From positions 930,001 through 994,000 of the forward strand of contig JBBPEB010000005.1 of the NCBI GenBank assembly GCA_039096225.1: DNA of 64,000 bases, written 5' to 3'. Under the pieces are notes generated by a model. It was given only the letters and a program-made list of their open reading frames with translations. It did not search any database and was not told the DNA's origin. Position 1 is the stretch's first letter, and each line of letters begins with the position of its first letter. The position numbers and the translations under genes are program-made. This document shows, one piece after another, positions 4,492 to 36,041 of the stretch. The stretch comes from Blastocystis sp. Blastoise (Eukaryota; Protista; Bigyra: Opalinata).

Positions 4492-5387
4492 ATTCTTCCG
4501 TTCTTCGAACTGCAGAAGGGGGTATGCAAACCCCGCATAGAGTCTGCGCGACGCGCGCAGCCATAAGCGGGGAAGACATCCCCCCTTTTTGTTCTCGACG
4601 GAAGAATTATTAACATTTCTGAAGTAAAATAACCATGGGAGTGTAGGGTAGTGTGTGTGTGTATTTATTTTTTCCCATGTTTATTTATTTTTAATTTATT
4701 TGTGTTCCGATTCCAACGTGAAACGTAAAGTGATCAAGGAGAAACTCATAGTAATCATAAAAGAAATAAAATACACACTCACACCCTCCCCTTTACAGGG
4801 AATATTCATGGGAAATGGCTCCATCGTTGGTAAAGTGAGTAAAATAATCACGGGAATACAGAAAGAAATACGAAAAGAAGCACAGAATGTGCTAAATAAA
4901 CACACACCCCGACCCTCCCTTTATATAGAGAAAAGATGAAATGGATGGTTCTATCTAAAAAGAAATAATAGAAATAATCACGGGAATATATAAAAATAAA
5001 AATGTATGTATAGTGATCAATAAATAATATAAAAAGTCATGATAATCATAAAAAAAATTATATAAAAAGAGTAAAGTGATCAAGGTATGTATTTATAGTG
5101 GGTGAAAGAAAAGCTGGTGGTGGTGTGGTCTTGTAAAAAGATGTACCCACCACCACGATTATAACGAGAGACTTTTGGAAACAAGGGTGACCGTTATGGA
5201 AATAGGATGCGTCATCGTGAATTGTCCAATCAAATTGCTTAAAAATGTAAAAATGAGGGATTTTGGAACACAAAAACATAATTATATTGGGGAAACTGGG
5301 GAAACTAATTGTGTTCCAGTGGTTTTAGGTGGCGGGGTGTATATCAATTTTCTAGAATATTCTAGAACATTCTCGAAACTTCTAGAA
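4492..5387 (+). repeat. Left terminal inverted repeat of PLV copy 1 (896 bp)
   Basis: Near-perfect reverse complement of 35145-36041. Confidence 0.96.
5350..5387. promoter_or_regulatory. Heat-shock-element-like array at the inner end of the TIR
   Basis: TTCtaGAAtaTTCtaGAAcaTTCtcGAAacTTCtaGAA: 8 alternating nGAAn units. Confidence 0.75.
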
Positions 5388-5435
5388 TAATAAATTGTAT
5401 TATGCATTTTTTTTTCTATTTTTATACTATTTATT

Positions 5436-5603
5436 ATGGATTCTCCAAAGCAATTTGCTCCATATTATAAAGAAGGTACTTGGAAACCTTATGGAAATTT
5501 TGAAGTTGATGAATTAAGTGATAGTGATTCTGAAGTGGATACTATTCAAACTGAAAGTGAAGATGATTATGAAGATTATATAAAAAATTTTATTGATTTT
5601 TAA
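5436..5603 (+). CDS. Small acidic viral protein, 55 aa (below the ORF-track cutoff)
   Basis: MDSPKQFAPYYKEGTWKPYGNFEVDELSDSDSEVDTIQTESEDDYEDYIKNFIDF*. Lies after the HSE array and before a TTGTTTAGTT 3' motif; codon style matches the other viral genes. Confidence 0.7.
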   Translation: MDSPKQFAPYYKEGTWKPYGNFEVDELSDSDSEVDTIQTESEDDYEDYIKNFIDF

Positions 5604-5677
5604 ATTAATTTTTATAAATAACAAAACAAATTGTTTAGTTTTTAAAAATAATAATAAATAAAACAAAATAAAATTAA

Positions 5678-7168
5678 CTAATGTTTTCTACGTTTATTTC
5701 TTAATTTTTTATTTTTTGAAATACGTCTTTTTCTACGTAATCCATTACCTTCTTCGAGATCATAAAATACCTCACCATCATCTTCATCAAATGATTGAAA
5801 TTCATCATCTTCTTTTTTATTTCTTTTATTATTATTTTCAAGAGTGACATTTTCTACTGGATTAGGAATCGGGGCTACAGGTGTAATATTTGGAGTGAAT
5901 TTATTCGTTATTGCTTGAGACATTGGAACAATATCAGGTAAAGGAACAGTAGGATCATTCATAAGAGGAATTAAATTTGGAGGATTTGAATCTTCAATAG
6001 TAATATTATGAATATTTTCTTGTGTTAGATTATCAGGAGTAGATGAAGAAGTTGGTATAACATTATTATTTGTTTCTATTGAATTTTCTGTTTGTGGTAT
6101 TTCGTCCTCTGGGTTTTTACCATAGTAATATCCAGAAAAGGTATTAAATAAATTCTTTACACCACTAACAACAGAGTTTGCAACTTTTTTAACACCATTA
6201 ACAATTGGTGTTCCTACATTTGTTGCAGTATTAACAACTTTATTAACAAATGTAGGGTTTTCTGCATAGGGAATATAATTTTTATGAAATGTTTTTGCTT
6301 GATCTTCTAAAGATTTAGTTTTGTTAAGTCTTTGTTCTTTAGTATCATTACCTGACATATGAGCAAATCTAAAATAGTTATCAGCTAATAATTTATTCTT
6401 TTTCTTAGCTTCATTATCATCAGTTAATTTCCAATTATCATATAAATTATTTCTATCACTTACAAGTTTTCCTTTAATATCATTGAATCCTTCTTTTGGA
6501 TCAACATTAATATCTCTCCACCAATTCTTGAGATCTTTAAATTTATTTGCACCATAATCAACAGCATTACTTATTCCATGAGTGATATTATTAATACCTC
6601 CAGTTAATTTATCAGACACATTGTATACATCACTTACAGTGTGATAAATATTAGAAAATAAATTACCACCTCTAGAATATAAATAACCATCACGATCTCT
6701 TTTAGTAAAATCAATTGCACTATCAATTGTACGAGGATTTAATAATCTTGAATATTTAGCATAATCAGACATATGATTTTGTTTCATATAAGGTAAGACA
6801 TAATCATGAGCATAAATGAGTTTTCTTGTAAAGTTCTTAGGAATTCTACCATCAGGTAATAACCCAGATCCTTCATCTATTGGTTCACTTTCTTCTGATT
6901 CTTCTAAGGAACTTTGTATAATATCTTGTCTGGTTTCTGATAAATAGGAGAAAAATGGATTGGATGTTGCTCTATTGACCATATTACTTTCAATTTTCTT
7001 AACAGCATATAATGAATTTGGAGCAATAGAATAATTAATTGGATAACGTTCTTCTCCATCAGGAATAGATCCTGGAACAATATAATTTCGATATTCATGA
7101 CCAGTAGCACGATGATTTACGCCTACTAATCCTTTATTTGAAACATTTAAACGAGCACTTTGTATCAT
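5678..7168 (-). CDS. Viral protein, 496 aa, probable virion core precursor with basic C-terminal tail
   Basis: Long ORF with RGG/TGG and GxG-hydrophobic motifs and a terminal RRKRRISKNKKLRNKRRKH tail. Function is inferred. Confidence 0.6.
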   Translation of the reverse strand: MIQSARLNVSNKGLVGVNHRATGHEYRNYIVPGSIPDGEERYPINYSIAPNSLYAVKKIESNMVNRATSNPFFSYLSETRQDIIQSSLEESEESEPIDEGSGLLPDGRIPKNFTRKLIYAHDYVLPYMKQNHMSDYAKYSRLLNPRTIDSAIDFTKRDRDGYLYSRGGNLFSNIYHTVSDVYNVSDKLTGGINNITHGISNAVDYGANKFKDLKNWWRDINVDPKEGFNDIKGKLVSDRNNLYDNWKLTDDNEAKKKNKLLADNYFRFAHMSGNDTKEQRLNKTKSLEDQAKTFHKNYIPYAENPTFVNKVVNTATNVGTPIVNGVKKVANSVVSGVKNLFNTFSGYYYGKNPEDEIPQTENSIETNNNVIPTSSSTPDNLTQENIHNITIEDSNPPNLIPLMNDPTVPLPDIVPMSQAITNKFTPNITPVAPIPNPVENVTLENNNKRNKKEDDEFQSFDEDDGEVFYDLEEGNGLRRKRRISKNKKLRNKRRKH

Positions 7169-7258
7169 TTTAAATTAATAAAATAATTATGAATTTTAAA
7201 ACAAAACAAAAAAAAAAGAAATTATTTATATTATATAGTTAGTATATTAATAGTATCA

Positions 7259-8132: not shown

Positions 8133-9170
8133 TTAATTTAAATGGAATTTTTTTAAGAAGAATTGAACAAGATTAATAATTAAATTAGTAGTAGTATCAA
8201 AGGATGTAGAGTTGACAAGAGCACCACCACAACGTTCAGCATTCTCTTTTGTAACACCACTTCCACTAGGATTTTTAAAATAGTTATCAGCAGTTTCTTT
8301 ACGTTTCTTATCATCATCAGTAGTAATCATATTATAAGCGAAATCAATAGGGATACCAAGAGAAGGATAATAGTATTTTAATGCATTCACTACAATAGGA
8401 ACAATAGTTTTAATAGTTTTAATAGCAGTATTCGCAATAATAGAATGCTTTTGTTTTGGATCCATAGGATATTCTTTATCGATAACGACATTAACAATAT
8501 CACGTACAGACACATGCTCATCATTTTTAGGTAATCGTTCTTTAATATCTTGTAATTTCTTTCTATTAGACTTTACATTACTAGAACGAATAGCCTTCTT
8601 AGCAATAATTCTTATTTGAGGAGTTACAAATTTACTTGTTTTCTTTTCTTTTTCTCGGTGACTCCCATGTTCTTTACGATGTTTCTGATGCCTTCTATGT
8701 ATACCTTGACCAAATATATCATCATAATTTTCATCTTCAAGATTTGCATTATTATAATCTTTATCATCATCAGCCATCATTTTTCTTGTTATTCTCTTTG
8801 GTTGATAAGTATCATCATCGTTATATAATTCATCATCTCTATTAGCATCTTCAATATGTTCTTCAAATTGTCTTTTCTTTTCTTCTTTTGCTTTTTCTTG
8901 ACGTTTTTGTTCTTTACGTTTCTGATAATAATTATATCCAGCAAATGCTCCTAATGTACCTAAAATAGGTAATGCAGTATAGACACCATTTTTAAAATCA
9001 GCCCAATCAGCATCTCTAGTTTGTTGTCTAACAATTTCTTCAAAGCCTGTTCCTCCATATCTTACATAACGTTTATGATAAAGATCACGTCTATTTGATT
9101 TTGGTGGTGATCCTCCAAATAATCGTGGATCACAATTTTGTTTTAAATATCTTTTTGTAATTGAACTCAT
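8133..9170 (-). CDS. Viral protein, 345 aa, probable virion precursor with a hydrophobic segment
   Basis: LFGG, RYGG, RCGG, GQGI and GSGV motifs; hydrophobic segment VYTALPILGTLGAFAGYNYY. Confidence 0.6.
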   Translation of the reverse strand: MSSITKRYLKQNCDPRLFGGSPPKSNRRDLYHKRYVRYGGTGFEEIVRQQTRDADWADFKNGVYTALPILGTLGAFAGYNYYQKRKEQKRQEKAKEEKKRQFEEHIEDANRDDELYNDDDTYQPKRITRKMMADDDKDYNNANLEDENYDDIFGQGIHRRHQKHRKEHGSHREKEKKTSKFVTPQIRIIAKKAIRSSNVKSNRKKLQDIKERLPKNDEHVSVRDIVNVVIDKEYPMDPKQKHSIIANTAIKTIKTIVPIVVNALKYYYPSLGIPIDFAYNMITTDDDKKRKETADNYFKNPSGSGVTKENAERCGGALVNSTSFDTTTNLIINLVQFFLKKFHLN

Positions 9171-9223: not shown

Positions 9224-10261
9224 TTAATGAAAAGATGGATAACCAGAATAATGTTTTTTATTTAAATAAGGATTGAAAATGCGTCGTTGACTATCTTGTA
9301 TGATTTGATCTTGTATGATTTGTAAGATGGATTCTTTAGGTTTATCTTTTTCATCTCGTTCAATACCTTTCAATGAGACTTCTTCTTCAACAGGTAAAAA
9401 CTTCTTCATTTTCTTTTCATATGTAGATACATGTTCATTAGGACGTTTAATACCACTACCTGATACTTCACCTTGTTCTTCTCGTTTCTCTTTTTCACTA
9501 TCTTCTTCTGTCCATTTCCTTTTCTTTACCATCTTATAGACATTCTGTTTACTACCACAATCAGGATTTGTCCATATCGTTAAATCATCACTACCTTGTT
9601 TTAACATAAAGAATTGATGTGGATCATTCATTAATTCTTCATCTGTAAGAATTTCATTTAGATTTGATGGCATAATCTTTAATTTATCTGGTAAGAATCC
9701 AGGATCACGTTTTAAGATTTGACTATTAATAAAGAAATGAGATACTTGACTTAATATAGATTGATTGGTAACATCTGTATGACTTTGAAGACATATAATA
9801 GCATTCTGTTTATAATGACGACCTTTAGATAATATAGATACAATCAATTGTTTGGTTTGTCTAGATAATGGATAGATATCATCCAATACAATAAAATTAT
9901 GTTCTGGTAATTTATATGTATTGACTAATTCATCAACAGTTTTAATCTTTTTAAATTTATCATCTACAGAATCATACCATTTATAATCAATTCCAGCATG
10001 CTCACAAATATCTTGAAAGGATGTATAACATTCATTCTTATTGGATGCATCAGGACAAATTACTGTGACTTGTTTATATTTATTTTTAAGATCCATAGAA
10101 CATAAGAGGTTCACAGTTAAGAAAGATTTACCTGAGAATGTTCTTGCAATAATCAATATGAATTTTGATTCATATGTTTTATGATGGGATTTTCCATATT
10201 TAAATTCTAAGACTCCACATCCTTTACGTGTTTCTTTTAATGGATTTATTTTATTCACCAT
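9224..10261 (-). CDS. A32-like (FtsK-HerA superfamily) genome packaging ATPase
   Basis: Walker A variant ARTFSGKS, Walker B FIVLDD, family signature KGRHYKQNAIICLQ. Confidence 0.92.
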   Translation of the reverse strand: MVNKINPLKETRKGCGVLEFKYGKSHHKTYESKFILIIARTFSGKSFLTVNLLCSMDLKNKYKQVTVICPDASNKNECYTSFQDICEHAGIDYKWYDSVDDKFKKIKTVDELVNTYKLPEHNFIVLDDIYPLSRQTKQLIVSILSKGRHYKQNAIICLQSHTDVTNQSILSQVSHFFINSQILKRDPGFLPDKLKIMPSNLNEILTDEELMNDPHQFFMLKQGSDDLTIWTNPDCGSKQNVYKMVKKRKWTEEDSEKEKREEQGEVSGSGIKRPNEHVSTYEKKMKKFLPVEEEVSLKGIERDEKDKPKESILQIIQDQIIQDSQRRIFNPYLNKKHYSGYPSFH

Positions 10262-10329: not shown

Positions 10330-11001
10330 TTAAGATGCAGTAAAGTATATATAAAGATTTGTATTTGATAAATCAATTGGATTATTTAATTGATCATATA
10401 TTTCCCATTGGATATCTGTATATTTACCATCAATACATGGAATAGATAAATCACTTAAAGCAAATGTATTATCAAATCCTTGTTTAGCATATAAAGGAAT
10501 AGAAATTAAATCATTATCTTTATTAATAATATCACAATACACACGTAACATATAGATCTTATACCATGAAATATTATTGGATATATATTCATCAGTAAAT
10601 ACGATTGTATCACCCGGACTAAAGTATGGTGATTTAATGCCTAAGTATTTAAATAGTCCAGAACTAAGACCACATTCAAACCAATGATTTGATTTAAAAG
10701 TTTTAGTTTCTTTATTATAGCTGAAACCATAAGGTTCTCCTTCAACATAGGATTTCATTTTTTTTCCAATTTCATATAATTGATCTAAAAAATCTTCTAA
10801 AGTATAATTTCCAGCTGGAAATGTATATCTACCAGCATTATCATAAAACTGAATATTGAATTCAGGAATATTAATGATATCACTTGTATTCACTAATGTA
10901 TTGATATGAGTTATATTTTTACCTACTAAATCCAAAGTATAATTGAATTGTTCATGACAGATTTGACTTGTAATTTTACTTAGATGAGATATTGATGTCA
11001 T
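10330..11001 (-). CDS. Minor capsid protein (penton, single jelly-roll)
   Basis: Polinton-type penton motifs FPAGNYTLEDF, LRVYCDII and IQWEIYDQLNNPIDL; lies between the ATPase and MCP genes. Confidence 0.8.
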   Translation of the reverse strand: MTSISHLSKITSQICHEQFNYTLDLVGKNITHINTLVNTSDIINIPEFNIQFYDNAGRYTFPAGNYTLEDFLDQLYEIGKKMKSYVEGEPYGFSYNKETKTFKSNHWFECGLSSGLFKYLGIKSPYFSPGDTIVFTDEYISNNISWYKIYMLRVYCDIINKDNDLISIPLYAKQGFDNTFALSDLSIPCIDGKYTDIQWEIYDQLNNPIDLSNTNLYIYFTAS

Positions 11002-11098: not shown

Positions 11099-12322
11099 TT
11101 AATTGGTTGCACCATCTCTAACAAATTTAACAAATATAAAATGAGCATATAAAGTATAAGTACCACTAGTAATATTTGCACCATTATATTCAGTTAATAA
11201 GGAGATATTAACTTCACAACCACTACGAGTATTGACATCAACAACACTTGAAATAGGGAATATATAAATAGGTTGTTCATACCACTTTTCACCATTCAAA
11301 GGAGATTGAGGATGACTATTACATCTCCAAGTATTATAAAGCATAGCATTAGGAATAATTTGTGATGGATTCGTTGTTTTATATGTAGTAGGGAAATCCG
11401 TCTTAGGTAAGATATTTTGACCACCAATTTGGAATTGACACATCTTCAATAATTCAGTCTTAATAGGAATCATACTCTTCTCTTGAGTTGTAAAATATAG
11501 CATACAGTAATCAGGTACGAAAACAACACTTCTATTGGATAAGAATTGTTGTGGAGTTGGTTTACCTGCTGTTGTGAATGTTTCTGAATAAACAGGTGTA
11601 GTAAATGCAGATATTTGACAATTATTAGGAATACATTTAATTAAAGCACGTGGATCATTACCAAAATTAATATCATAAATTTGTTGAAGATGAATATAAA
11701 CACGATCAAAAGTTAATGCAGTGATTTTAGTCGTACCTGTAAATAGATTCTTTAAATAATTTGTAACGAATTGCATCTTCAAAGATTTTACTTTAATAGC
11801 ACAATCAAATGTACCAAGACCAGTAATAAGAGATAAAGGAATAATAACTTGAGCTTTAGTAGAACTTTGCATTCCAGAAATACTACTTAATGTTGTATTA
11901 TATAAGCATTCTGTCATACTATACATAGATTTATCAATTTCATCTTTACTTAATTCTTTAATAGTAACAAATTTTCTTGCTTTACTGGATTCAATAGAAG
12001 ATTCAGAATAATTAATAAGAATATCTTGACCCGTAGGAGATACAAACGTAAGATCTGTAGTAATTTTATCAATAATACTATAGATATTAGAATGTTGTAC
12101 AACAGAACTAGTTGTAGCTGCATTTGTTGTAATATTGAAATTCAGTTCTAAGAATGAATTACTGAAATCAATAAAAGGACTATCCACTGAATTATATAAG
12201 AATTCAAATGGATAAGGTTGATTTAATAAATCTTGACTTGTAGAAACTAGAATAGGAATTTGTACAGGTTTAATAGTTTGATTTGCCTTTGAAGGTAAGA
12301 ATTGTCTTGGGAATCCTTCCAT
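11099..12322 (-). CDS. Major capsid protein 1 (double jelly-roll), 407 aa
   Basis: N-terminal pattern FIDFSNSFLELNFNI...NIYSIIDKI resembles Polinton/PLV MCPs; size, beta-rich composition and gene context agree. Confidence 0.75.
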   Translation of the reverse strand: MEGFPRQFLPSKANQTIKPVQIPILVSTSQDLLNQPYPFEFLYNSVDSPFIDFSNSFLELNFNITTNAATTSSVVQHSNIYSIIDKITTDLTFVSPTGQDILINYSESSIESSKARKFVTIKELSKDEIDKSMYSMTECLYNTTLSSISGMQSSTKAQVIIPLSLITGLGTFDCAIKVKSLKMQFVTNYLKNLFTGTTKITALTFDRVYIHLQQIYDINFGNDPRALIKCIPNNCQISAFTTPVYSETFTTAGKPTPQQFLSNRSVVFVPDYCMLYFTTQEKSMIPIKTELLKMCQFQIGGQNILPKTDFPTTYKTTNPSQIIPNAMLYNTWRCNSHPQSPLNGEKWYEQPIYIFPISSVVDVNTRSGCEVNISLLTEYNGANITSGTYTLYAHFIFVKFVRDGATN

Positions 12323-16212: not shown

Positions 16213-16249
16213 GCCGCAGGTCCGGGGCCTAACGGCACCGGACCGCGGC
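16213..16249 (-). terminator. Helitron 3' subterminal GC-rich hairpin (rolling-circle termination signal)
   Basis: Minus strand GCCGCGGTCCGGTGCC-GTTA-GGCCCCGGACCTGCGGC, then GTGACC-CTAG; identical in copy B. Confidence 0.85.
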
Positions 16250-16410
16250 TGCAATGAATAATAAGTGTTTTGTTTTTATTCACTTTCTTTCCTTATTATC
16301 TACTATATATTATATAATATATATTATTTATTAAATATTATCTATAATATGTTACTTATTATCTATAATATGTTACTTATTATATATTATATATATTATT
16401 TTATTAACAC

Positions 16411-16480
16411 TTCTTATACTCTATATGGAGAGTTACAATCATATATTGATTGTAATCAGGTTCAATTCCTGATATAAGAA
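16411..16480 (+). ncRNA. tRNA-like cloverleaf 1 in Helitron A
   Basis: Stems TTCTTATA/TATAAGAA, CTCT-ATATGG-AGAG, TACAATC/GATTGTA and TCAGG-TTCAATT-CCTGA (B-box-like). Confidence 0.6.
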
Positions 16481-22932: not shown

Positions 22933-23355
22933 ATGGAGCCTAAATCTGTATCTGAATCCTTACATTCTTTATCAAGTACAAGTTCAACAAGTTCAGATAG
23001 TTCAACAACAACCACATTATCCGAAGAAGAAATAGAAAAGAAAAATACTTTATTAGAATTTATTATAAAAGCTATAAAATGTTTATTTGAGAAATCAACT
23101 GAATTCTTTCAATTAATTGTTAAAAATATAGATATTCATTGTAATTGTTGTAATCCACAAACAAAGAAAGTCTATTATAAGACAATGAAAATACAACAAA
23201 CTATTATTGAAGAAGAAGTCAAACATATATCAGAAGTCTTGAATGAATTAGAAGAAATTGATTCTAATCAAAATGAATCAATACAAGAATTAGCTGTTCA
23301 ATTAATGAAATTAAATATAAGTGTTGATTCTATTGTTCAATCTCTTCATTTATAA
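22933..23355 (+). CDS. Hypothetical viral protein, 140 aa (Ser/Thr-rich N-terminus, CxCC, coiled coil)
   Basis: Protein is identical in copy 2, with silent nucleotide changes. Confidence 0.8.
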   Translation: MEPKSVSESLHSLSSTSSTSSDSSTTTTLSEEEIEKKNTLLEFIIKAIKCLFEKSTEFFQLIVKNIDIHCNCCNPQTKKVYYKTMKIQQTIIEEEVKHISEVLNELEEIDSNQNESIQELAVQLMKLNISVDSIVQSLHL

Positions 23356-28200: not shown

Positions 28201-28266
28201 ATCTTTTGAATTATCATGATTAAAGGAACCAAAAGTATAAACAAAATGAATTTGTGAATTTTCCAT
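25264..28266 (-). CDS. AEP primase(-polymerase) fused to PriCT-2 and SF3 (D5-like) helicase
   Basis: AEP motifs WFDLDY, GIHIY and FID; PriCT-2-like TWYKLCCAAK..GLELF; Walker A GSTGSNGKT, Walker B YMNE, motif C FMTSN, Arg finger ERR. First ATG at 28266. Confidence 0.9.
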   Translation of the reverse strand: MENSQIHFVYTFGSFNHDNSKDNHSEIIIPNPFPFYKSLFTNYQNPKELLHYIDCTPCNTSTNYRRLWFDLDYHQISNDFSFLTDSFIHEFIEEMCNHCIHYYNQEFISLVYTKKEVNKKTVHNEIHYSWGIHIYTNWFVNGDYLFFLYNSMILNTKLVDLCKMNNLDIKEFIDYNVIGKPRKNNGCMFLGCSKDNSPSTYKLYEEYTNKTWKKIDDEIDEHYYFKTLLNYKNEDDIISDIINPIIFYKLKQYSRYKRYYTRLNNCSRTILCSIQDIKDIPMLIYTDTILDTTASKEALLERYLLLIGSIEDMNYFESHNTWYKLCCAAKQICNTTRGLELFKNYSLRYGHDRSDDVIESTWNHIQVDPTHLSNNYILKILMDNKLFNKDDDNDFIFMSILECIQSFNLVDSQTLVMLFQLLEFNEIVSIILDKDNFILYTFDEYNILRRCKNNYDINFFETKITTFMKSIVEKFKLSRLYSKENEQHQKIVDKIMSASVTNEYHYKEWLNRYLKTYGKSYKEYLDTYMVHKERVIYTQLGYLYPKESTEEDPRQYYIQPYHKEDMVFEDLLIDTEFNVSWNINNEQKDIIQLFEQHIARYCEFDKKYESIMLRILTTAFYVNTQKTVSYILYGSTGSNGKTITTDLISRIVGSNQCIIVNPDNLEETSIAPKIVDMSNKTMYYMNELIEEDVTGRKKTFNPFSSKVFKEIAEKKEGASARKLFSNIFTKVHFTGTLFMTSNIQPTAVNAGPIERRVCFLPSCCRYFPPGNANLYEDYVDHNLPKRKQTVEKRLKPNHYEMDYTLSDKFYQNRSIIFSYLVSNYFYSSMQLDMHELDNEYHISECKKRFFDRSTEGYDLKSFVDNHITIDPYYLNVVTIEDIFNSYKKVNNNNQFTIKKDLDKFTNALFGCLSSKDTFNSIDIVNIHRKHTSNFYKGGNAIGICGLMIDNTYNECVDTDLFCLSNCLSKKEEIVYSEDQYHNTSSTKRILIDNTLYAIPN

Positions 28267-28334: not shown

Positions 28335-28472
28335 TTCTAGAAGTCAGTTTTGGAAGCTTCTAGAACATTCAAGAACATTCTAGAACATTCTAGAACATTC
28401 TATAATAGTAAATATTACTTTATATTTTTAAATGTTCTAGAACCTTCTAGAACCTTCTAGAACCTTCTAGAA
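28335..28472. promoter_or_regulatory. Two HSE-like arrays upstream of the primase-helicase gene
   Basis: TTCnnGAAnn repeats with 10-bp period at 28358-28400 and 28435-28472, plus a single unit at 28335. Confidence 0.75.
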
Positions 28473-28582: not shown

Positions 28583-29206
28583 TTAAATTTCAATTGGTTC
28601 TTGACTATTAATATATGTACATGAATGAGGCCATCCATTTTTATCATATAAAATACCATCCCAGAAATACATTTGTTTTGAAGGATCTCTTTTAATCTTG
28701 TTAATACTCTTAGCATGAACAACTTCATAAGTATAAACTTTACCTTTTTCATCATAAAGAAATCCATCTTCCATATGGAATTTCATAATATCAAAATCAT
28801 CATCTTTAGAATTCGAATGTTCTTTAGAATCTTCAGAACATAAAATAGTAGTTCTATCACTTTCTAAAAGATCTTCAGTATTGATAATATCTTGAATATC
28901 TTGTTCTTCATTAAGTTGTTGAGTATAAATATCAGCAGCGAATTCTTCATAATCTTCAAGACCTTTAATAACCGCGTTTATACGTTTTAAAGCTGATCTA
29001 TAGTTTTCGACTTCGAAAGAAGCAAGACGTTCTTTAGATTTTGCAATACCCAATAGATTCTTTTCTCTATTCAATTGAGACTGATGTAAATCAATATCAC
29101 GAAGAACATTCTTATGAACTTCAACAGCCTTCTTAGAATTCTTAAGAAGTTCCATACGAACAGTTTGAAGACATTTACGGGAATCAGCAGAAAGATTAAA
29201 TTGCAT
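28583..29206 (-). CDS. Hypothetical viral protein with N-terminal coiled coil (207 aa from the first ATG)
   Basis: Conserved in copy 2; short HSE at 29318-29335 upstream. Confidence 0.75.
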   Translation of the reverse strand: MQFNLSADSRKCLQTVRMELLKNSKKAVEVHKNVLRDIDLHQSQLNREKNLLGIAKSKERLASFEVENYRSALKRINAVIKGLEDYEEFAADIYTQQLNEEQDIQDIINTEDLLESDRTTILCSEDSKEHSNSKDDDFDIMKFHMEDGFLYDEKGKVYTYEVVHAKSINKIKRDPSKQMYFWDGILYDKNGWPHSCTYINSQEPIEI

Positions 29207-29604: not shown

Positions 29605-30132
29605 ATGGAAATTCCTGATAGTCTTTCTGCCAGTTTATCCCCTTTCGGTCAAGCCATGATATCCCCCTTGTTGAATCCATTTGAAAATAGTGTTTCTGCA
29701 AATCCTATGGCTTTACCCAATGATAATGATTTCTGTTTTAATTCGCGTGACGAAATCATGTTTGAAGATCCACCTCAAGAAATTCATCCAATCAATGATG
29801 TTTACGTATCTAAAAATCCAGATAGATATCATTCGGTTAACAATCAACCAATACAATTTCAAGATCAAGTAAATACAAATCCTGATAAGCAAGCATTATT
29901 ATTTACAAATGAGGAGTTAACAAATATATCCAGTCAATTCGAATCTTTATTTCAAACTATTGAAACAGCTGATAATATATTAAATGGTATTTATTGTACT
30001 GTTGATCATTTAAAAACAAAGATTGAAAGTCAGAAACAAGATTTGAAACAGATTCATGATGATTCTAAAGAAATTGTTTCATTATTATCCGAATATTCTA
30101 TTCCTTCTATGTCTGAAATATTTGATCATTAA
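29605..30132 (+). CDS. Hypothetical viral protein, 175 aa, acidic N-terminus and C-terminal coiled coil
   Basis: Conserved in copy 2; upstream divergent promoter region 29340-29520 contains three ATTGG (CCAAT) boxes. Confidence 0.75.
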   Translation: MEIPDSLSASLSPFGQAMISPLLNPFENSVSANPMALPNDNDFCFNSRDEIMFEDPPQEIHPINDVYVSKNPDRYHSVNNQPIQFQDQVNTNPDKQALLFTNEELTNISSQFESLFQTIETADNILNGIYCTVDHLKTKIESQKQDLKQIHDDSKEIVSLLSEYSIPSMSEIFDH

Positions 30133-30223: not shown

Positions 30224-30331
30224 AGAATTCTTGAATGGTCTAATGGATCTATTAAAGAAATATGTAACCACAGTATCATGGTTCGATTCCGTTAAAATGT
30301 TTCCATTAGATTATTCAAGTGTTCTTTTTTT
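30224..30331 (+). ncRNA. Viral RNA polymerase III small RNA, VA-RNA-like architecture (~105 nt)
   Basis: A-box TGGTCTAATGG (30236-30246), B-box GGTTCGATTCC (30280-30290), T7 terminator (30325-30331), 18-bp terminal stem 30230-30247/30302-30319. Confidence 0.78.
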
Positions 30332-30377
30332 CTAGAACCTTCTCGAACCTTCTAGAACCTTCTAGAACCTTCTCGAA
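30330..30377. promoter_or_regulatory. HSE-like array upstream of the SSB-like gene
   Basis: Five TTCnnGAA units at 10-bp period. Confidence 0.75.
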
Positions 30378-30454: not shown

Positions 30455-31048
30455 ATGTCTACAACTGAATTTAAAAAACCTACTATTCTTGATACTTCTA
30501 ACTTTAATTTACAATGGGATGACACCAAAGAAAATGCTGTTCTTTTAAATAATAATCATCGTGTATGTATTTCTACTGATGCTACACCATGTTTATTTGG
30601 TTATATTGTTACACGTGATAAATGGACTTTATTAACAATTGAAGATGATAATCAAGTATTCTTAACTGCTTATAAAGAACTTTATCGTAAATTATGTGAA
30701 TTATGTCCTGATGGTGATATTGTTAATTTTGTACGTATGGATAATGGTAAATATAAGATTACAATTAAAGTACCTATTAATGCATCGAAGAATATTACTA
30801 TTGATATCACTGATAAAAGAGATAAGAAGATTAATATCGGTAAAGATCCTAAGTTAACTTACGAAGAAATACGTGAAAAGTATATTCCACCAAATACGTT
30901 ATGTAAAGTATTATTTACAATACATGGTATTCATCGTTATAATAACAAGTATTATATTGGTTTATATGCTCGTTCTATTAAAGTCATCGATAAATCTACG
31001 AAGAATACTAATAGTAATGATACTATTATTGATTTAACCAATTTATAA
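30455..31048 (+). CDS. Probable single-stranded DNA-binding protein (OB-fold, T7 gp2.5/NCLDV-like)
   Basis: Pattern ST..TPCLFG...helix...KITIKVP...IPPNTLCKVLFTIHGIHRYNNKYYIGLYARSIKV resembles NCLDV SSBs. Recognised by eye only. Confidence 0.55.
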   Translation: MSTTEFKKPTILDTSNFNLQWDDTKENAVLLNNNHRVCISTDATPCLFGYIVTRDKWTLLTIEDDNQVFLTAYKELYRKLCELCPDGDIVNFVRMDNGKYKITIKVPINASKNITIDITDKRDKKINIGKDPKLTYEEIREKYIPPNTLCKVLFTIHGIHRYNNKYYIGLYARSIKVIDKSTKNTNSNDTIIDLTNL

Positions 31049-31123: not shown

Positions 31124-32752
31124 ATGCAAAGTTGTATATTAGGAATGCCAAGTCCTGGTACTTTTGGTATGAATTTAATTTCAACTGGAAAAGAATATAG
31201 GCGATATAATACACAACCATTACATAAAATGGATCAATATAATCCAATATTTCATGAAATAGGTCCAAATTCATCTATGCCTGTGTCTACTTTAGAAAGT
31301 AAAGAAATACATGATGGTAAAGAAGATGATTATGTAGATCGTTCTAAAACATTTGGTAAAGATGCTGTTCCACAAGGAAATGGTGCTTTAATTCGTGCTA
31401 GAGCAGCAGGTAAAGGTGTAATGAAAGCAGCTGGTCCAGAAGAAGATAAAATAGATGGTGAAGATCGTCAATATAAAGTATTAAATCCATGTAAACCAAG
31501 ACGTAAATCTGGTAGAGGTATTATTCCAAATAAATCAGAAATCAATAAATTAGAGAATAATCAAGGTTCTGGTATTGGTGATGCAATTAAAAATAAAGTA
31601 AAAGATATGTATCAACGAAATGTATTAGATATAAGAGATGCTATTGTAGATAAAAAAGCTAATAGAAAAGCTCGTGATGCATTAGCTATTTTAGCTCAAT
31701 ATGTTGGTGACGGTCATCATGATCTTGATGATGAATTCAAAAGATTCTATGAACATAAAATTAAACGTGGTGGAAAGATTCCTATATCTGTTGCTTCAGC
31801 AATTATGAATGCAATTAAAAATAAGAAAATGATTAATAATCCAAAATTAAGAAGAATGTTAAGACCCTCTATTATACCAAAATATATAGATTTAGATTCA
31901 GCTCAAAGTGGTGATGGTATATTAAGAGTTAAAAGAGGTGGTGGATTCTGGAGTGGAGTTATGAACTATGCACCAGCTCTTTTAGGTGTAGTTGATAAGG
32001 GTATGGATTCTTTTGCTAAAGGTAGAAAAGCTTATTATGATACACATTTGGCACAACAATCAAGTGAATTAAATGATATGGAATTTGAAATGGAAAAATT
32101 AAAACGTCAACAAGCATTAAATGAAATGAAAAAACAAATAGGTTCAGGAAATACAATAAATAAAATGTTTGAAGGATATTATGATGTAGCTGATGAAATG
32201 CAAGATGCTCTTGATGAAGATGATAGACTACATCCACAACCCGTTGTTCAACCTCCACCACCTCCACAACAACAAGTTGATCGACCTCCTCAATCTCAAC
32301 CTCCTCAACCTTATAAACCCATGTCTCGTGATGAACAAAGTTATTATTATAAGATTTATGGTTTCCCTCAAAATGATAAAGAGAAAGTCGATAGAAAATG
32401 GAAAGAAGATGAAAGGGATAAACGAATAGCTGCAAGAAGAGCTAAACGTAGAGGTTATGGTGGTCGAGTTAAATTAAGTAAAGCAGAATTCTTAGAACGA
32501 ATGAGAAGAGGAAAAGAAGCTAAAAAGAAAAGAGGTGGTGATTTGAATCCATTAGTATCATTTTATACAGATTTTATAATACCTGCAGGAGTGGCACGAA
32601 AAAAACGTAAAATACAAGAGGCTGATTTAAAACAATTACAAATTATAAAACAGAAAATAGATAATAATGAAACATTAAATACAGGTGACGAATTGTTCTG
32701 GAAAAAAAAGAAGTATATGTTATCAAAAAACTCAGGGGAGGGGATCTGGTAA
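31124..32752 (+). CDS. Basic virion core polyprotein precursor, 542 aa
   Basis: K/R-rich, with four GG motifs (KRGG x3, GYGG) and about seven GxG motifs; amphipathic segment after KRGG; directly upstream of the protease. Confidence 0.65.
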   Translation: MQSCILGMPSPGTFGMNLISTGKEYRRYNTQPLHKMDQYNPIFHEIGPNSSMPVSTLESKEIHDGKEDDYVDRSKTFGKDAVPQGNGALIRARAAGKGVMKAAGPEEDKIDGEDRQYKVLNPCKPRRKSGRGIIPNKSEINKLENNQGSGIGDAIKNKVKDMYQRNVLDIRDAIVDKKANRKARDALAILAQYVGDGHHDLDDEFKRFYEHKIKRGGKIPISVASAIMNAIKNKKMINNPKLRRMLRPSIIPKYIDLDSAQSGDGILRVKRGGGFWSGVMNYAPALLGVVDKGMDSFAKGRKAYYDTHLAQQSSELNDMEFEMEKLKRQQALNEMKKQIGSGNTINKMFEGYYDVADEMQDALDEDDRLHPQPVVQPPPPPQQQVDRPPQSQPPQPYKPMSRDEQSYYYKIYGFPQNDKEKVDRKWKEDERDKRIAARRAKRRGYGGRVKLSKAEFLERMRRGKEAKKKRGGDLNPLVSFYTDFIIPAGVARKKRKIQEADLKQLQIIKQKIDNNETLNTGDELFWKKKKYMLSKNSGEGIW

Positions 32753-32844
32753 AGAGTAAAGATGAAAAACTTATTCAAAATTCAATGAATTGCGATAATC
32801 CTATTATATCTGATAAAACTCGTCATGTTACTCCTAGATCCCCT
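32725..32844 (+). other. Putative -1 programmed ribosomal frameshift signal (A_AAA_AAC plus downstream stem-loop)
   Basis: Heptamer 32725-32731 is in the correct phase; stem AGGGGATCTGG (32739-32749)/CTAGATCCCCT (32834-32844); the -1 frame is open into the protease. Confidence 0.75.
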
Positions 32845-33318
32845 GATAATTTCAAACAAACTCTATCTCAATATTGTAATATACCAAATTCTTTAATATC
32901 TCAATTATATAATTATGCTTATTTAAATAAACCTACCTCTTCTGTTGCTTGTGATCGTGCTGAAAATGTTATGAAACAATTAAATAAAACGAATTCTCAA
33001 TCTTATAATTATTATAATAGTTATGATGATTTTGAACAAAATATAGATCAAGATCAAACTAAATTTAATATGATCTTTCATGAAAGTCCTAGTGATCCTT
33101 ATAATGGTCATTTTGAAGCTGTTATTTATAATGGTAATAAAAACATAGAACACTATTCATCATTAGGAAATGAACCTACTTTTTCAAAATCATTTATTCA
33201 AAATCATAATATTCAATATAATCCTATTCAACACCAAAAAACTACAAGTAATGCAAATGGTTGCTTTTATTATTCTTTACTTTATTTACTTTCTAATGGA
33301 AATCTTATGCCTTGTTAA
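32785..33318 (+). CDS. Adenain-like (clan CE) maturation cysteine protease; probably translated from 32731 via frameshift
   Basis: GHFEAV (His), YSSLG (aligns with FEPFG/FDSFG), YNPIQHQ (oxyanion Gln), GCFYYSLLYL (Cys). Confidence 0.8.
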   Translation: MNCDNPIISDKTRHVTPRSPDNFKQTLSQYCNIPNSLISQLYNYAYLNKPTSSVACDRAENVMKQLNKTNSQSYNYYNSYDDFEQNIDQDQTKFNMIFHESPSDPYNGHFEAVIYNGNKNIEHYSSLGNEPTFSKSFIQNHNIQYNPIQHQKTTSNANGCFYYSLLYLLSNGNLMPC

Positions 33319-33322
33319 AACC

Positions 33323-33567
33323 TTCTAGAATATTCTAGAATCTTTAATTTATTATATTAATATTTTGTATAATTAATTTGTTTTGTTTAATATTTAATAC
33401 TATTATGACAAAGAAACGATTTGGCAATTACTACTTAGATCGTAGTGCAGAAACTTTAGAGAATGTAAATGAAATACTGTCAGTTATTGAAATTGTTCTT
33501 ATTATTATATATATTTTACTTTACTTTTATATGTCCAAGAAACGTTCTAGAACATTCTAGAACATTC
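33323..33567. promoter_or_regulatory. Two short HSE-like arrays (33323-33340 and 33545-33567), each upstream of a small gene
   Basis: TTCtaGAAtaTTCtaGAA and TTCtaGAAcaTTCtaGAAcaTTC. Confidence 0.6.
33405..33560 (+). CDS. Small putative membrane protein, 51 aa
   Basis: ATG at 33405; hydrophobic stretch ILSVIEIVLIIIYILLYFYM followed by KKR; retained in copy 2; has its own 3' motif. Confidence 0.55.
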   Translation: MTKKRFGNYYLDRSAETLENVNEILSVIEIVLIIIYILLYFYMSKKRSRTF

Positions 33568-34037: not shown

Positions 34038-34110
34038 TTTTTATATCCTTTTATTACTAGTTGTTTAGTTATATTCAAAATTAAAGCAAAACAAACATGA
34101 AAACATAAAA

Positions 34111-35046
34111 TTATTCAATTAATTTTTTAAATAAATTATTATTTTCTAAAGATACATAAGAATTAATATGTGTATAATCATTATGACATAAAGCAGAAGC
34201 AGAATTTTCTATATCTTGGAATGTATTGGTTGTAGTTGTAGCATATAATTTTCTTAATGCATTAATGGTTAATTTTGGATGGATTTGTTTTAAATGCTTA
34301 TTCACAAACCAATCAAATGCTTTAGTAGTAAATCCAGTTCTTACAGAAGATTCAAATATAAATTTACGATTTGGATTTCTTTTTAAGAGTAATTCTAGAT
34401 CTTCAATCAATTCTTTTGGTGCATCTAATTGAATTGTAGAGTATTTACCAGCAGTTTTATAATCATTTAATAGAATAGAACCAGTATGTTTCTCTTTATC
34501 ATAAACAATATAATTCTTATGAATAGCTGGATCAATAGTATCTTCTGGTGATAGAATGAATAATTGAGCATAATCAGCACGAGCAGGAGGAAGATAGGAG
34601 TAAAAATCTAATATTAATCGTAATGGATTATAATTTTCTAATTTATCGTGATATTCATGTAAATATGGAGTCGTAATACCATCTTTAATAAGATCTTGAA
34701 TTAAAGTACGTTTCTTATTATCCAGATATTTTTCATACATTGAATTGATAATCACATAAAATTCACACCATTTATTTAAAATACCTTCTTTATTTAATGA
34801 AGAAACATTACGTATAATAAATAAAATCAATTCACATAACGATTTCATTGGACTAATTTTGATTTTACGTTCATTTACCATATAATCCATGAATGAATAA
34901 GGATTCTTTAAGAATTCTGAGAACTTTTTAAATGGTAATGGGAAAATATATAAATTGAAATAATTGGTTAAACGTTTTTTCCAAATATCAGAATAATTTG
35001 AATTCTGTATAACCAAAAGATACTTGTCATAATTTGTATTTTTCAT
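34111..35046 (-). CDS. Tyrosine recombinase/integrase, short form (311 aa from the first ATG)
   Basis: PPARADY (R), LNDYKTAGKY (K), NALR (R), HNDYTHINSY (H, Y); virophage/PLV-type integrase pattern; adjacent to the TIR. Confidence 0.88.
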   Translation of the reverse strand: MKNTNYDKYLLVIQNSNYSDIWKKRLTNYFNLYIFPLPFKKFSEFLKNPYSFMDYMVNERKIKISPMKSLCELILFIIRNVSSLNKEGILNKWCEFYVIINSMYEKYLDNKKRTLIQDLIKDGITTPYLHEYHDKLENYNPLRLILDFYSYLPPARADYAQLFILSPEDTIDPAIHKNYIVYDKEKHTGSILLNDYKTAGKYSTIQLDAPKELIEDLELLLKRNPNRKFIFESSVRTGFTTKAFDWFVNKHLKQIHPKLTINALRKLYATTTTNTFQDIENSASALCHNDYTHINSYVSLENNNLFKKLIE

Positions 35047-35134
35047 TGATTTTCTCAAGTAGAATCTCTAAAACTTCTATTTTCAAAAGAATAATACATA
35101 AGAAAATCAAAATAAAATATCTAAGATTCTCATG

Positions 35135-35182
35135 TTCTCGAATGTTCTAGAAGTTTCGAGAATGTTCTAGAATATTCTAGAA
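35135..35182. promoter_or_regulatory. HSE-like array upstream of the short recombinase gene
   Basis: Five TTCnnGAA units at 10-bp period. Confidence 0.75.
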
Positions 35183-36041
35183 AATTGATATACATGCCGC
35201 CACCTAAAACCACTGGAACACAATTAGTTTTCCCAGTTTCCCCAATATAATTATGTTTTTGTGTTCCAAAATCCCTCATTTTTACATTTTTAAGCAATCT
35301 GATTGGACAATTCACGATGACGCATCCTATTTCCATAACGGTCACCCTTGTTTCCAAAAGTCTCTCGTTATAATCGTGGTGGTGGGTACATCTTTTTACA
35401 AGACCACACCACCACCAGCTTTTCTTTCACCCACTATAAATACATACCTTGATCACTTTACTCTTTTTATATAATTTTTTTTATGATTATCATGACTTTT
35501 TATATTATTTATTGATCACTATACATACATTTTTATTTTTATATATTCCCGTGATTATTTCTATTATTTCTTTTTAGATAGAACCATCCATTTCATCTTT
35601 TCTCTATATAAAGGGAGGGTCGGGGTGTGTGTTTATTTAGCACATTCTGTGCTTCTTTTCGTATTTCTTTCTGTATTCCCGTGATTATTTTACTCACTTT
35701 ACCAACGATGGAGCCATTTCCCATGAATATTCCCTGTAAAGGGGAGGGTGTGAGTGTGTATTTTATTTCTTTTATGATTACTATGAGTTTCTCCTTGATC
35801 ACTTTACGTTTCACGTTGGAATCGGAACACAAATAAATTAAAAATAAATAAACATGGGAAAAAATAAATACACACACACACTACCCTACACTCCCATGGT
35901 TATTTTACTTCAGAAATGTTAATAATTCTTCCGTCGAGAACAAAAAGGGGGGATGTCTTCCCCGCTTATGGCTGCGCGCGTCGCGCAGACTCTATGCGGG
36001 GTTTGCATACCCCCCTTCTGCAGTTCGAAGAACGGAAGAAT
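35145..36041 (-). repeat. Right terminal inverted repeat of PLV copy 1 (897 bp)
   Basis: Reverse complement of 4492-5387. Confidence 0.96.

Follow-up and report, generated by a model that had tools for sequence, protein, structure and literature searches.

The 64,000-nt stretch of Blastocystis sp. Blastoise DNA analysed here (the window) carries an integrated, multi-copy Polinton-like DNA virus (PLV) in the broad sense (Polisuviricotina). The reading that we favour, with a somewhat better than even chance of being right, is that of a nuclear, stress-inducible provirus of tortoise-clade Blastocystis that is transcribed by its host and induced by the host's heat-shock factor (HSF). The features most telling for this mechanism, namely predicted hairpin ends, arrays of heat shock elements (HSEs) and a 3' motif, are absent from an earlier note on this DNA.

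Structure, ends and copies of the provirus

The elements in the window are as follows.

4492..36041, no strand assigned: provirus copy 1, 25,161 nt without the Helitron
4492..5387, plus strand: left terminal inverted repeat (TIR), 896 nt
35145..36041, minus strand: right TIR, 897 nt, 99.4% identical to the left TIR
4492..4607, plus strand: terminal imperfect palindrome, 116 nt, predicted hairpin (z -6.05)
35925-36041: terminal palindrome at the opposite end of copy 1, predicted hairpin (z -8.13)
16203..22591, minus strand: non-autonomous Helitron in copy 1, 6,389 nt, with TC start, GC hairpin and CTAG end
38494..44900, minus strand: copy 2 of the Helitron family, in the host DNA that separates the proviruses
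45629..64000, minus strand: provirus copy 2, inverted, running past the window end
45629-45744: terminal palindrome of copy 2, predicted hairpin (z -6.36)

Copy 1 has a GC content of 26.9%, compared with 20.3% in 7.7 kb of host DNA, and a coding fraction of 82%. PLVs are recognised by a TIR-bounded genome of 15-40 kb integrated in a protist; here, 25,161 nt are bounded by TIRs of 897 nt, in agreement with the length of about 0.9 kb given previously, and the host flanks carry a tRNA and a He_PIG gene. No target-site duplication was found at the copy 1 junctions when both flanks were compared. At the three visible element ends, the palindromes score z -6 to -8 as hairpins, whereas two adjoining TIR windows score only -0.83 and 0.10.

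The inverted second copy, which the earlier note had placed 9.6 kb away, begins 9,587 nt past copy 1. It is 98.9% identical to copy 1 across 12.6 kb and 93.7% across 5.05 kb, and about 137 nt of its TIR are deleted. A genome-wide count, proposed in that note as a check, gave an estimate of about 20 copies.

Copy 1 had been described as complete, which is wrong: the Helitron at 16203-22591 cuts the 811-aa penton-like gene and shortens it to 740 aa. The gene is whole in copy 2 (58687-61122, minus strand). Since 6.4 kb of copy 1 are Helitron, the virus proper measures 25.2 kb. Helitrons begin with 5'-TC, end with 3'-CTRR after a hairpin and insert between A and T without duplication. These terminal hallmarks hold at the ends of both Helitron copies; the 3' hairpin scores z -5.27, and the insertion lies at an A^T target without duplication. 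Neither copy has a long ORF beyond low-complexity frames that could be a Rep-helicase gene, and the element is therefore read as non-autonomous.

That free virus from another member of a xenic culture was misjoined to host contigs, as an assembly artefact or contaminant, is hardly credible. The tortoise Blastocystis cultures were xenic (PMC10690189), but the same host Helitron family occurs both within the virus and in the host DNA beside it, the provirus copies are mutually different and spread over many contigs of 0.5-2.2 Mb, and the virus genes bear eukaryotic cis signals. The host is most likely a tortoise-gut, or tortoise-clade, Blastocystis.

Capsid and morphogenesis genes

The following genes were assigned to this group or lie among its members.

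5678..7168, minus strand: 496-aa putative core protein, akin to the 542-aa protein in its N-terminal ~60 aa
7259..8056, minus strand: 265-aa protein
8133..9170, minus strand: 345-aa basic/acidic protein, possible core protein
9224..10261, minus strand: packaging ATPase
10330..11001, minus strand: 223-aa protein, penton-like by an assumed motif only
11099..12322, minus strand: major capsid protein MCP1, 407 aa, predicted double jelly roll
12493..13965, minus strand: MCP2, 490 aa, paralogue of MCP1 by sequence comparison
14039..22863, plus strand: 811-aa penton-like gene, split by the Helitron in copy 1
22933..23355, plus strand: 140-aa protein
31124..32752, plus strand: 542-aa putative core protein with repeated Gly motifs
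32785..33318, plus strand: 177-aa cysteine-protease candidate with His, Gln and Cys ordered as in adenain

Judged by its AF2 model (pLDDT 82.4, pTM 0.82), MCP1 is a double-jelly-roll major capsid protein; the lack of this fold had been named beforehand as grounds for giving up the viral call. The model matches the MCPs of Sputnik (Foldseek E 4e-12) and faustovirus (VIA Z 19.4, rmsd 4.6, 326 aligned; PBCV-1 tied within 1 Z), a fold match that cannot tell virophage capsids from NCLDV capsids. Its best structural match in BFVD is A0A8S5L5M3 (E 8.5e-19, TM 0.70, 14% identity), which is labelled 'MELD virus sp.' and may or may not be the Blastocystis MELD virus considered below. MCP1 and MCP2 are 28% identical (E 3e-39), which confirms the two MCP genes noted earlier.

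The packaging ATPase matches PHROG 2666 (packaging category, E 1.1e-10) and has Walker A, Walker B and GRH motifs, from which we take it to be A32-type; a packaging ATPase of the A32/FtsK type is a further trait by which PLVs are recognised. PLVs are also marked by a single-jelly-roll penton, for which the two penton-like genes are candidates. What we take to be a penton motif occurs once in the 223-aa protein and three times in the 811-aa protein, and the latter scores 0.89 in Atlas against clusters for penton, DUF5901 and V18-19, which is no more than a lead. The 223-aa protein, on the other hand, has no database match, and the 811-aa protein has no confident predicted fold (pLDDT 28.7); its comparison with MCP1 gave no similarity (z 0.0). 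The 177-aa protein, presumably adenain-like by its motif, has no PDB sequence match.

Replication and recombination genes

The remaining genes are listed below.

5436..5603, plus strand: 55-aa acidic ORF, no Pfam hit
23423..25219, plus strand: 598-aa tyrosine-recombinase-like protein (R200, K239, R318, H358, Y367), no HSE upstream
25264..28266, minus strand: AEP primase-SF3 helicase, 1000 aa, by domain matches and motifs
28583..29206, minus strand: 207-aa protein
29605..30132, plus strand: 175-aa protein, divergent from the 207-aa gene
30455..31048, plus strand: 197-aa protein, SSB candidate of the earlier note
33405-33560: 51-aa ORF
33663-34037: 124-aa ORF
34111..35046, minus strand: 311-aa probable tyrosine recombinase (R156, K197, R265, H288, Y297)

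The AEP primase-SF3 helicase was identified correctly from the start: its helicase part matches PHROG 1156 (E 2.5e-9), TIGR01613 is matched at E 1e-8, under that family's curated cut-off, and the primase motifs DxD and GxHx[YF] as well as the SF3 Walker A/B and motif C are kept in 7/7 aligned relatives. PriCT_2 matches weakly in one relative. The absence of protein-primed DNA polymerase B (pPolB) and rve integrase is likewise borne out: no unassigned ORF is of sufficient size, and a scan with five motif patterns gave one stray match, inside the 265-aa ORF, and no rve motif. The probable SSB found no database support.

Two tyrosine recombinases had been proposed; such enzymes carry the catalytic residues R-K-(H)xxR-H/W-Y in this sequence. 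Catalytic R, K, R, H and Y are in register in the 311-aa and 598-aa proteins, with the usual His of HxxR replaced in both; the former matches Pfam PF00589 at E 0.084, and the latter reaches Atlas 0.96-0.97, the cluster at 0.96 having PF00589 on 15% of its members. The likeness between the two is modest (hhalign probability 0.3%, E 0.2; z 4.5 vs 3.4 for an unrelated control). The second assignment comes from the motif register and the Atlas score, with weak pairwise statistics against it.

Heat shock element arrays

Arrays of HSE units were found at six places in copy 1.

5350..5387: 8 units, left TIR inner end, 49-86 nt before the 55-aa ORF
28353..28472: two arrays of 10 and 8 units, 87-206 nt upstream of the primase-helicase
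29318-29335: 4 units, common to the divergent 207-aa and 175-aa genes
30330..30377: 10 units, 78-125 nt upstream of the 197-aa gene
33323..33567: two arrays of 4 and 5 units, before the 51-aa and 124-aa ORFs
35135..35182: 10 units, right TIR inner end, 89-136 nt upstream of the 311-aa recombinase

An HSE is an unbroken run of at least three nGAAn units in alternating orientation ahead of a gene, and HSFs are broadly eukaryotic. Each virus copy has eight arrays of this form with 4-10 perfect units, compared with 0.015 in shuffles. The pattern TTCnnGAAnnTTCnnGAA matches 35 times in the window, against 0.01 expected, always within the two virus copies, and the host and Helitron DNA of the window has no array of at least 4 units. 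A strict 6-unit pattern was found in only one stretch among the 2.9 million contigs of IMG/VR, at a gene junction.

All arrays lie 49-287 nt ahead of start codons, and 8/20 genes have one within 300 nt upstream. They precede three of the four DNA-handling genes (the SSB candidate counted) and none of the eight virion or morphogenesis genes, a grouping made after the arrays were known; only three of the eight HSE-preceded genes have an assigned or candidate role, the rest being the 55-, 207-, 175-, 51- and 124-aa ORFs. Because the arrays stand at the primase-helicase gene and one likely recombinase gene and not at the capsid genes, host stress would likely switch the provirus on via HSF.

The same arrays could be iterons or operators for a virus-encoded protein, serving early-gene regulation or marking origins. 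Two of them lie at the TIR inner ends, where origins could be, several small HSE-linked ORFs could encode regulators, and the units are mostly TTCTAGAA, more regular than HSF requires. We consider this quite unlikely: GAA and TTC alternate strictly every 5 bp through as many as 10 units, which is HSE geometry, every array precedes a start codon at the distances given, and the differences between copies within arrays, two events only, both fall on spacer positions.

3' motif and transcription

TGTTT(T)GTT occurs 14-77 nt past the stop codon in 16/20 genes (shuffle mean 0.14), does not occur in the 18.5 kb of coding sequence read on the sense strand, and is absent from the divergent MCP2/811 spacer. 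Owing to this distribution it is read as a 3' signal, in which case viral transcripts would end just before the TGTTTTGTT motif. It was likened to the downstream gene element of Blastocystis (PMC10690189). No downstream element is enriched in tortoise isolates (PMC10690189), and the host may therefore not read the motif. The provirus has no RNA polymerase ORF, and its cis signals suggest that its transcription likely falls to the nuclear machinery of the host.

The same virus might instead depend on a helper, with a giant virus mobilising it, as with mavirus or Gezel-14T, the HSEs sensing infection stress and the helper providing the polymerase. Infection can trigger stress responses, the AEP is the only DNA polymerase of the element itself, and many PLVs are reported as hyperparasites in the portions of the literature available. 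Helper dependence is nevertheless unlikely, as cis signals of host type, the HSEs and the 3' motif, speak for transcription by Pol II in the nucleus, and genes are reported, in an egovirus preprint, not to pass between Blastocystis and those gut giant viruses.

Variation and relatives

A comparison of copies 1 and 2 at 11 gene pairs, which left out the 207-aa genes and the cut-off MCP1, gave 135 synonymous and 117 non-synonymous changes. The differences, previously called mostly silent, are so by count, though barely; per site, pN/pS is 0.21 overall, with 0.04 in the primase-helicase, 0.21 in the 811-aa gene and 0.40 in MCP2. The provirus genes are under purifying selection. Replication proteins are about 99% identical between copies and structural proteins 89-97%. 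Together with the TIR identity and the copy number, these values support the earlier view of a recently spread endogenous virus.

The named relatives with ≥90% identity are proteins of Blastocystis sp. Blastoise (the ~20 copies). Two MCPs are present in every relative sampled, and metagenomic relatives retain both at 44-63% identity; MCPs and primase-helicase of relatives appear to share metagenome contigs of 24-27 kb. The MCP profile search gave only 11 matches among 1.84 billion representatives.

It is very unlikely that the element now moves only by transposition or recombination within the genome, its capsid genes being a recent relic without virions. The broken 811-aa gene of copy 1 and the greater variation of structural genes would fit such a history, but purifying selection acts on MCP2 and on the 811-aa gene, both MCPs persist in the metagenomic relatives, and the MCP1 differences cluster in four short stretches, mostly in loops of the model.

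Proposed cycle

In the favoured reading of a stress-inducible provirus, stress-activated host HSF would bind the nGAAn arrays and switch on an early set comprising the primase-helicase, the SSB candidate, the 311-aa recombinase and small genes. This recombinase, which has its promoter within the TIR, would then cut the provirus out at the terminal palindromes. The released ends may fold into hairpins of ~116 nt, by which the linear genome would be primed or closed with no need of a terminal protein or pPolB. The AEP-SF3 protein would unwind and prime, with extension most likely by a host nuclear polymerase. Virion genes, which have no HSE, would come late and build a capsid from two MCPs. Finally, the 598-aa recombinase, sited among late genes, may resolve replicated ends or integrate progeny, leaving no target-site duplication. 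The split of excision and integration between the two recombinases is a guess. Copy 1 lacks a whole 811-aa protein and would therefore need a sister copy for virions.

Comparison with known systems

Named PLV MCP groups (TSV, PgVV, GKS, Trimcap and others) are assigned by published HMMs, as are the MCP, ATPase and protease that define virophages (Maveriviricetes/Lavidaviridae; PMC9952930). Membership in Maverick/Polinton elements (Polintoviricetes) was rejected, there being no pPolB-size ORF, rve motif or target-site duplication. On the same grounds (no candidate pPolB ORF, no rve, no duplication), the provirus is not of the type of the Blastocystis MELD virus (PMC8502044; 'Blastocystis MELD virus 3996', 10.1101/2022.05.25.493380), which shares the host genus and whose virion proteins, like those of the provirus, are diverged beyond recognition (PMC8502044).

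A divergent PLV lineage in an AT-rich protist, as proposed earlier, is supported, but the lack of pPolB is not what makes it unusual: the available parts of two sources report AEP-SF3 replicases with tyrosine recombinases as common (10.64898/2026.10.13.758929; PMC11296320). Each of these traits has already been published singly: a missing pPolB, AEP-SF3 together with a recombinase, more than one MCP, and palindromic ends. No description of this lineage or of its heat-shock programme was found in the literature.

As far as the available text describes them, the entomopoxvirus-associated AHEV_PLV2 and CBEV_PLV1 (PMC11296320) also have a primase-helicase and a tyrosine recombinase (YR) in place of pPolB and rve, and PLVs of this type share inverted repeats, a protease and a morphogenesis module (PMC11296320; 10.64898/2026.10.13.758929). 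What sets the Blastocystis provirus apart from them is its pair of YR-like genes, its two MCPs, its HSE arrays and its 897-nt TIRs with predicted hairpin tips; no sequence link between it and those viruses was found. Trimcap PLVs, according to the accessible part of the preprint, have three highly divergent MCPs, some with two penton genes (10.64898/2026.06.19.733378), whereas the two found here are still 28% identical.

Palindromic TIR tips in elements without pPolB are described, in the part of the preprint available, for endogenous virophages and PLVs of Halocafeteria seosinensis, likewise a stramenopile, together with a hairpin-priming model and transposons inside proviruses (10.64898/2026.07.28.741278). 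Those palindromes accompany RVE integrases and target-site duplications (52 nt in the drawn subtype), while those of the provirus are imperfect, 116 nt long and found with YR-like genes only and no duplication. For the related reptile-gut opalinate Proteromonas lacertae, 285 MCP genes are listed (PMC10120064); the same table, in the portion available, gives no MCP count for 10 Blastocystis assemblies. A mobile element with an HSE in its terminal repeat is known in ONSEN/Atcopia78, which the accessible text describes as activated by host HSF (PMC5056178); that element has a single promoter and is an LTR retrotransposon, whereas the provirus is a DNA virus with eight arrays over one functional gene class.

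Structure, copies and host of the element

The window carries a real, young, multi-copy Polinton-like virus (PLV) of a divergent lineage. The following features are referred to below.

4492–36041: provirus, copy 1
45629–64000 (window end): second provirus, copy 2, inverted relative to copy 1
16203–22591, minus strand: Helitron insert in copy 1
38494–44900: recurrence of the insert in host DNA
5678–7168: gene of a 496-aa protein
25264–28266: gene of a 1000-aa primase-helicase (AEP-SF3)
31124–32752: gene of a 542-aa protein

In a self-comparison of the window, a single element is bounded by terminal inverted repeats (TIRs) of 897 nt that are 99.4% identical, as expected from the ~0.9 kb of the earlier note. 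Comparison of both flanks revealed no target-site duplication at the copy 1 junctions. The inverted second copy claimed earlier was recovered as well, with 98.9% identity to copy 1 across 12.6 kb and 93.7% across 5.05 kb. The 11 gene pairs compared, a set without those of the 207-aa gene and the truncated MCP1, contain no internal stops and differ at 135 synonymous and 117 non-synonymous positions (pN/pS 0.21). By count, the claim of mostly silent differences holds narrowly for these pairs. The 811-aa gene is split by the insert in copy 1 and whole in copy 2. Copy 1 is therefore not intact, and its description as complete had to be dropped.

The insert is missing from copy 2. Its first bases are TC, it finishes in a hairpin rich in GC (z -5.27) and CTAG, and it is placed between A and T without duplication, all of which are hallmarks of Helitrons. 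ORF inspection found no Rep-helicase ORF in it. Both Helitron copies hold an intron-rich, Cys/Gly-rich gene fragment (18250–19120 and 40620–41270); four introns of about 50–73 nt in the first are exactly missing from the second, while adjacent introns are common to both, which indicates recent exact intron loss or gain within a DNA transposon. With the Helitron removed, the virus proper comprises 25,161 nt, is 82% coding and has a GC content of 26.9% vs 20.3% in 7.7 kb of host DNA. The latter fits the 21–23% GC of tortoise isolates (PMC10690189). The host flank contains a gene with a He_PIG (putative Ig) domain (1–300, E 4.9e-8) and a tRNA-Pro(AGG) gene (2132–2203), the tRNA being the sole match of an Rfam scan.

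Within the 90% clusters of window proteins, the entries that carry a name are hypothetical proteins from Blastocystis sp. Blastoise. The distinct cluster members (19 primase-helicases, 21 598-aa proteins, 15 MCP2s, 11 ATPases and 10 311-aa recombinases) point to about 20 copies, an estimate from protein clusters; three element ends are visible in the window. Nine MCP1s are located on NCBI contigs of 0.75–2.2 Mb. An artefact is a very unlikely rival reading of the element.

Capsid and morphogenesis genes

The structure prediction proposed earlier as a check of the capsid fold yielded a double jelly roll for the 407-aa MCP1 (pLDDT 82.4, 35-sequence alignment). In a structure search, the model matches the double-jelly-roll capsids of Sputnik, PRD1, iridovirus and PBCV-1, with a VIA Z of 19.4 to the faustovirus MCP; the best BFVD match is a protein of 'MELD virus sp.' (TM 0.70, 14% identity). 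The presence of two MCPs is borne out by the 490-aa MCP2, a paralogue of MCP1 (28% identity, E 3e-39). In a tree of 22 sequences, 15 MCP1 and 6 MCP2 rows separate at 98/98 support, with a very long outgroup branch, and the duplication is thus older than the sampled relatives.

The ATPase matches PHROG 2666 (E 1.1e-10). The 811-aa protein has Atlas matches to penton clusters at 0.89; its assignment is based on motif and Atlas, its 4-sequence alignment having given no usable fold. The 811-aa and 223-aa penton-like proteins, the 177-aa protease and the 197-aa SSB are candidates by motif or position. PDB sequence searches returned no meaningful match for the 177-aa and 197-aa proteins, nor for the ATPase, the 311-aa recombinase and the primase-helicase profile; matches to histone H2B and S-layer proteins were dismissed as chance. 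Similarity between the 223-aa and 811-aa proteins is not significant (z 0.8). The 496-aa and 542-aa proteins have an N-terminal region of ~60 aa in common (z 5.6) and are probably paralogous core proteins.

Average identity among the host copies is about 99% for replication proteins, 96% for MCP1, 96% for MCP2 and 93% for the 811-aa protein. Variation in the structural genes (11099–16261 and 58687–62705) is clustered: in MCP1 at about residues 65–73, 145–157, 248–255 and 381–388, in MCP2 at residues 220–241 and 417–475, and in the 811-aa protein at 100–500, its C-terminal 300 aa being nearly fixed. The pattern suggests surface diversification or recombination. Spread of the element as a transposon only is an unlikely alternative.

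Replication genes and terminal palindromes

The AEP primase-SF3 helicase named in the earlier note was recognized again in the 1000-aa protein, with a P4/D5-type helicase half by database matches; its primase motifs are conserved in all 7 proteins of an alignment. The ORFs and a motif scan likewise agree with the claimed lack of a family-B DNA polymerase (pPolB) and an rve integrase, as no ORF is able to hold either. The 311-aa and 598-aa recombinase-like proteins align over 238 columns at 29% identity with R, K, R, H and Y in register, although the pairwise statistics are weak. A Pfam match of the 311-aa protein (E 0.084) and Atlas values of 0.96–0.97 for the 598-aa protein point in the same direction, that of tyrosine recombinases (YRs). 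A protelomerase role of the 598-aa protein is unsupported, and a linkage of polintons with protelomerases is absent from the literature searched.

At each of the three visible ends, the outermost 116–117 nt make up a GC-rich, imperfect palindrome, with folding z values of -6.05, -8.13 and -6.36, compared to -0.83 and 0.10 for two neighbouring TIR windows. Since the palindromes are identically oriented at all three ends, a poxvirus-type flip/flop is unsupported. At the two ends on the side of the 311-aa recombinase (36042–36046 and 45624–45628), the pentamer outside the palindrome is the same as the one inside it; these repeats vary together between the copies, and the other end has none. The true right end may consequently be 36046. 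That the repeat is a recombination core is no more than a hint from three ends in AT-rich DNA. Copy 2 lacks ~137 nt of its TIR at 46339–46340, just outside a heat-shock-element array, with palindrome and array retained. Terminal palindromes and a hairpin-priming model have been described for non-pPolB elements of Halocafeteria, where, unlike here, the palindromes accompany RVE integrases and duplications (10.64898/2026.07.28.741278).

Heat-shock-element arrays and proposed cycle

The four-unit pattern of the heat-shock element (HSE; alternating nGAAn units) occurs 35 times in the window vs 0.01 expected, every time within the two virus copies. Arrays of 4–10 alternating units are found in each copy region, 8 of them in copy 1 vs 0.015 in shuffles. 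Of the 20 genes, 8 have them 49–287 nt upstream. Two arrays stand before the primase-helicase gene, and the rest before those of the SSB candidate, the 311-aa recombinase and a set of five small proteins without assigned function. Within 300 nt, no array was found at the two MCPs, the two penton candidates, the ATPase, the protease and the two putative core proteins, nor at the 598-aa recombinase and three other genes of unassigned function. AGAATCTTTAAT, a possible core promoter, follows the arrays of three genes (28267–28350, 33341–33400 and 33575–33662).

A nuclear, stress-induced cycle is the most likely explanation; the sequence features are observed, and every functional step we infer. 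Host heat-shock factor (HSF) would activate the early genes, and the 311-aa recombinase, promoted from the TIR, would release the viral DNA by acting at the palindromes. In place of a terminal protein there would be hairpin ends, and AEP-SF3 together with a host polymerase would copy the genome. Late genes would then provide a capsid made of two MCPs, while resolving or integrating the progeny would fall to the 598-aa recombinase. An HSF trigger is plausible for a reptile-gut host, which presumably meets wide temperature swings. The arrays might instead be binding sites of a viral protein, a less likely rival, and dependence on a giant virus is another less favoured possibility. In IMG/VR, the strict six-unit pattern yielded one stretch, located on a giant-virus contig where genes adjoin. 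The stress-induced cycle predicts a trigger (heat or proteotoxic stress), which genes respond first and how the ends are built; its host can be cultured and has about 20 young copies.

Relation to known elements

The element resembles a PLV in its double-jelly-roll MCP, its packaging ATPase and its integrated, TIR-bounded genome, with candidates for the penton; the features of Mavericks/Polintons were not found. The lineage was not found in the literature searched. The headline features of the earlier note are mostly published: AEP-SF3 and YR are reported to be a common pairing (10.64898/2026.10.13.758929; PMC11296320), and multiple MCPs and two pentons are already known (10.64898/2026.06.19.733378). 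What the analysis adds is an early gene set marked by HSEs, two recombinase-like genes together with hairpin ends, and a host in which tests can be made. The literature search retrieved no report of HSE arrays in a PLV; the only source naming an HSE alongside a polinton was, in its available text, a plant review covering ONSEN (PMC5056178). Supplementary tables of two 2026 PLV surveys may include relatives.

A known Blastocystis MELD virus carries PolB and an integrase (PMC8502044); the host name was not found in the supplement of that paper. In the available part of a survey of endogenous viral elements in protists, 10 Blastocystis assemblies are without count vs 285 for Proteromonas (PMC10120064), and the host genome paper makes no mention of such a virus. 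Eukaryotic matches were handled as likely contamination in a human-gut capsid census (PMC9502842). The capsid lineage is invisible to Pfam, PHROGs, IMG/VR scans and a phage collection, although Blastocystis is described as the commonest eukaryotic microbe in human guts (PMC10690189).

Relatives

More divergent families occur in the named records of the host (MCP1 at 48–51% identity). Among these, P0077, P0079, P0080, P0156, P0158 and P0261 represent at least two further divergent families of this virus lineage, whose locus tags for MCP1 and MCP2 are adjacent. Among 87 MCP1 relatives, 83 are unnamed, at 55–63% identity and nearly all from ENA or Logan assemblies; six further primase-helicase clusters show 39–45%. 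Judged indirectly, from the identical size of the longest contig, relatives of MCP1, MCP2 and the primase-helicase appear to lie together on contigs of 23,710, 23,956 and 26,864 nt; for MCP1 and a single partner, the contigs measure 23,715, 23,719, 27,350, 27,391 and 27,522 nt. Amino-acid GC proxies are only slightly higher in the metagenomic relatives. IMG/VR, JGI metagenomes, GTDB and the phage collection provided no loci around relatives, the one confirmed IMG/VR match being without locus. An MCP profile search of 1.84 billion representatives found 11 proteins only, which places the lineage in isolation in sequence space. A lone 403-aa Logan protein (P0163), which the MCP profile finds with E 6e-9 and whose branch is very long, is possibly a sister capsid lineage.

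A 3'-end motif

In 16 of the 20 genes, TGTTT(T)GTT is located after the stop codon (shuffle mean 0.14). It is absent from the sense strand of 18.5 kb of coding sequence and from the spacer between the divergent MCP2 and 811-aa genes. TGTTTTGTT was ruled out as a late promoter, as it is not in that spacer and is found after terminal convergent genes. The motif resembles the Blastocystis downstream gene element, which the available text of PMC10690189 places in human-subtype strains and not in tortoise isolates. Either the virus derives from, or retains the signal of, a motif-using lineage, or a host variant escaped that survey; the presence of the motif in the virus bears on the time of origin of the downstream gene element.

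A broader reading is tentative and rather doubtful as a whole: an undescribed lineage of helper-independent temperate Blastocystis viruses, whose entire early programme would be wired to HSF, comparable to an SOS-inducible prophage, and whose two YRs would act on folded hairpin ends, one excising and the other resolving or integrating. Relatives would circulate as the 24–27 kb metagenome genomes and might infect other Blastocystis lineages, since the 3'-end motif of the virus is reported for human-associated subtypes only. If true, heat shock of an existing culture would yield an inducible Blastocystis DNA virus.

TGTTT(T)GTT is also located downstream of the intron-rich fragment in both Helitron copies (17762, 17860, 39611, 40045 and 40055, minus strand), so the host may use the motif too.
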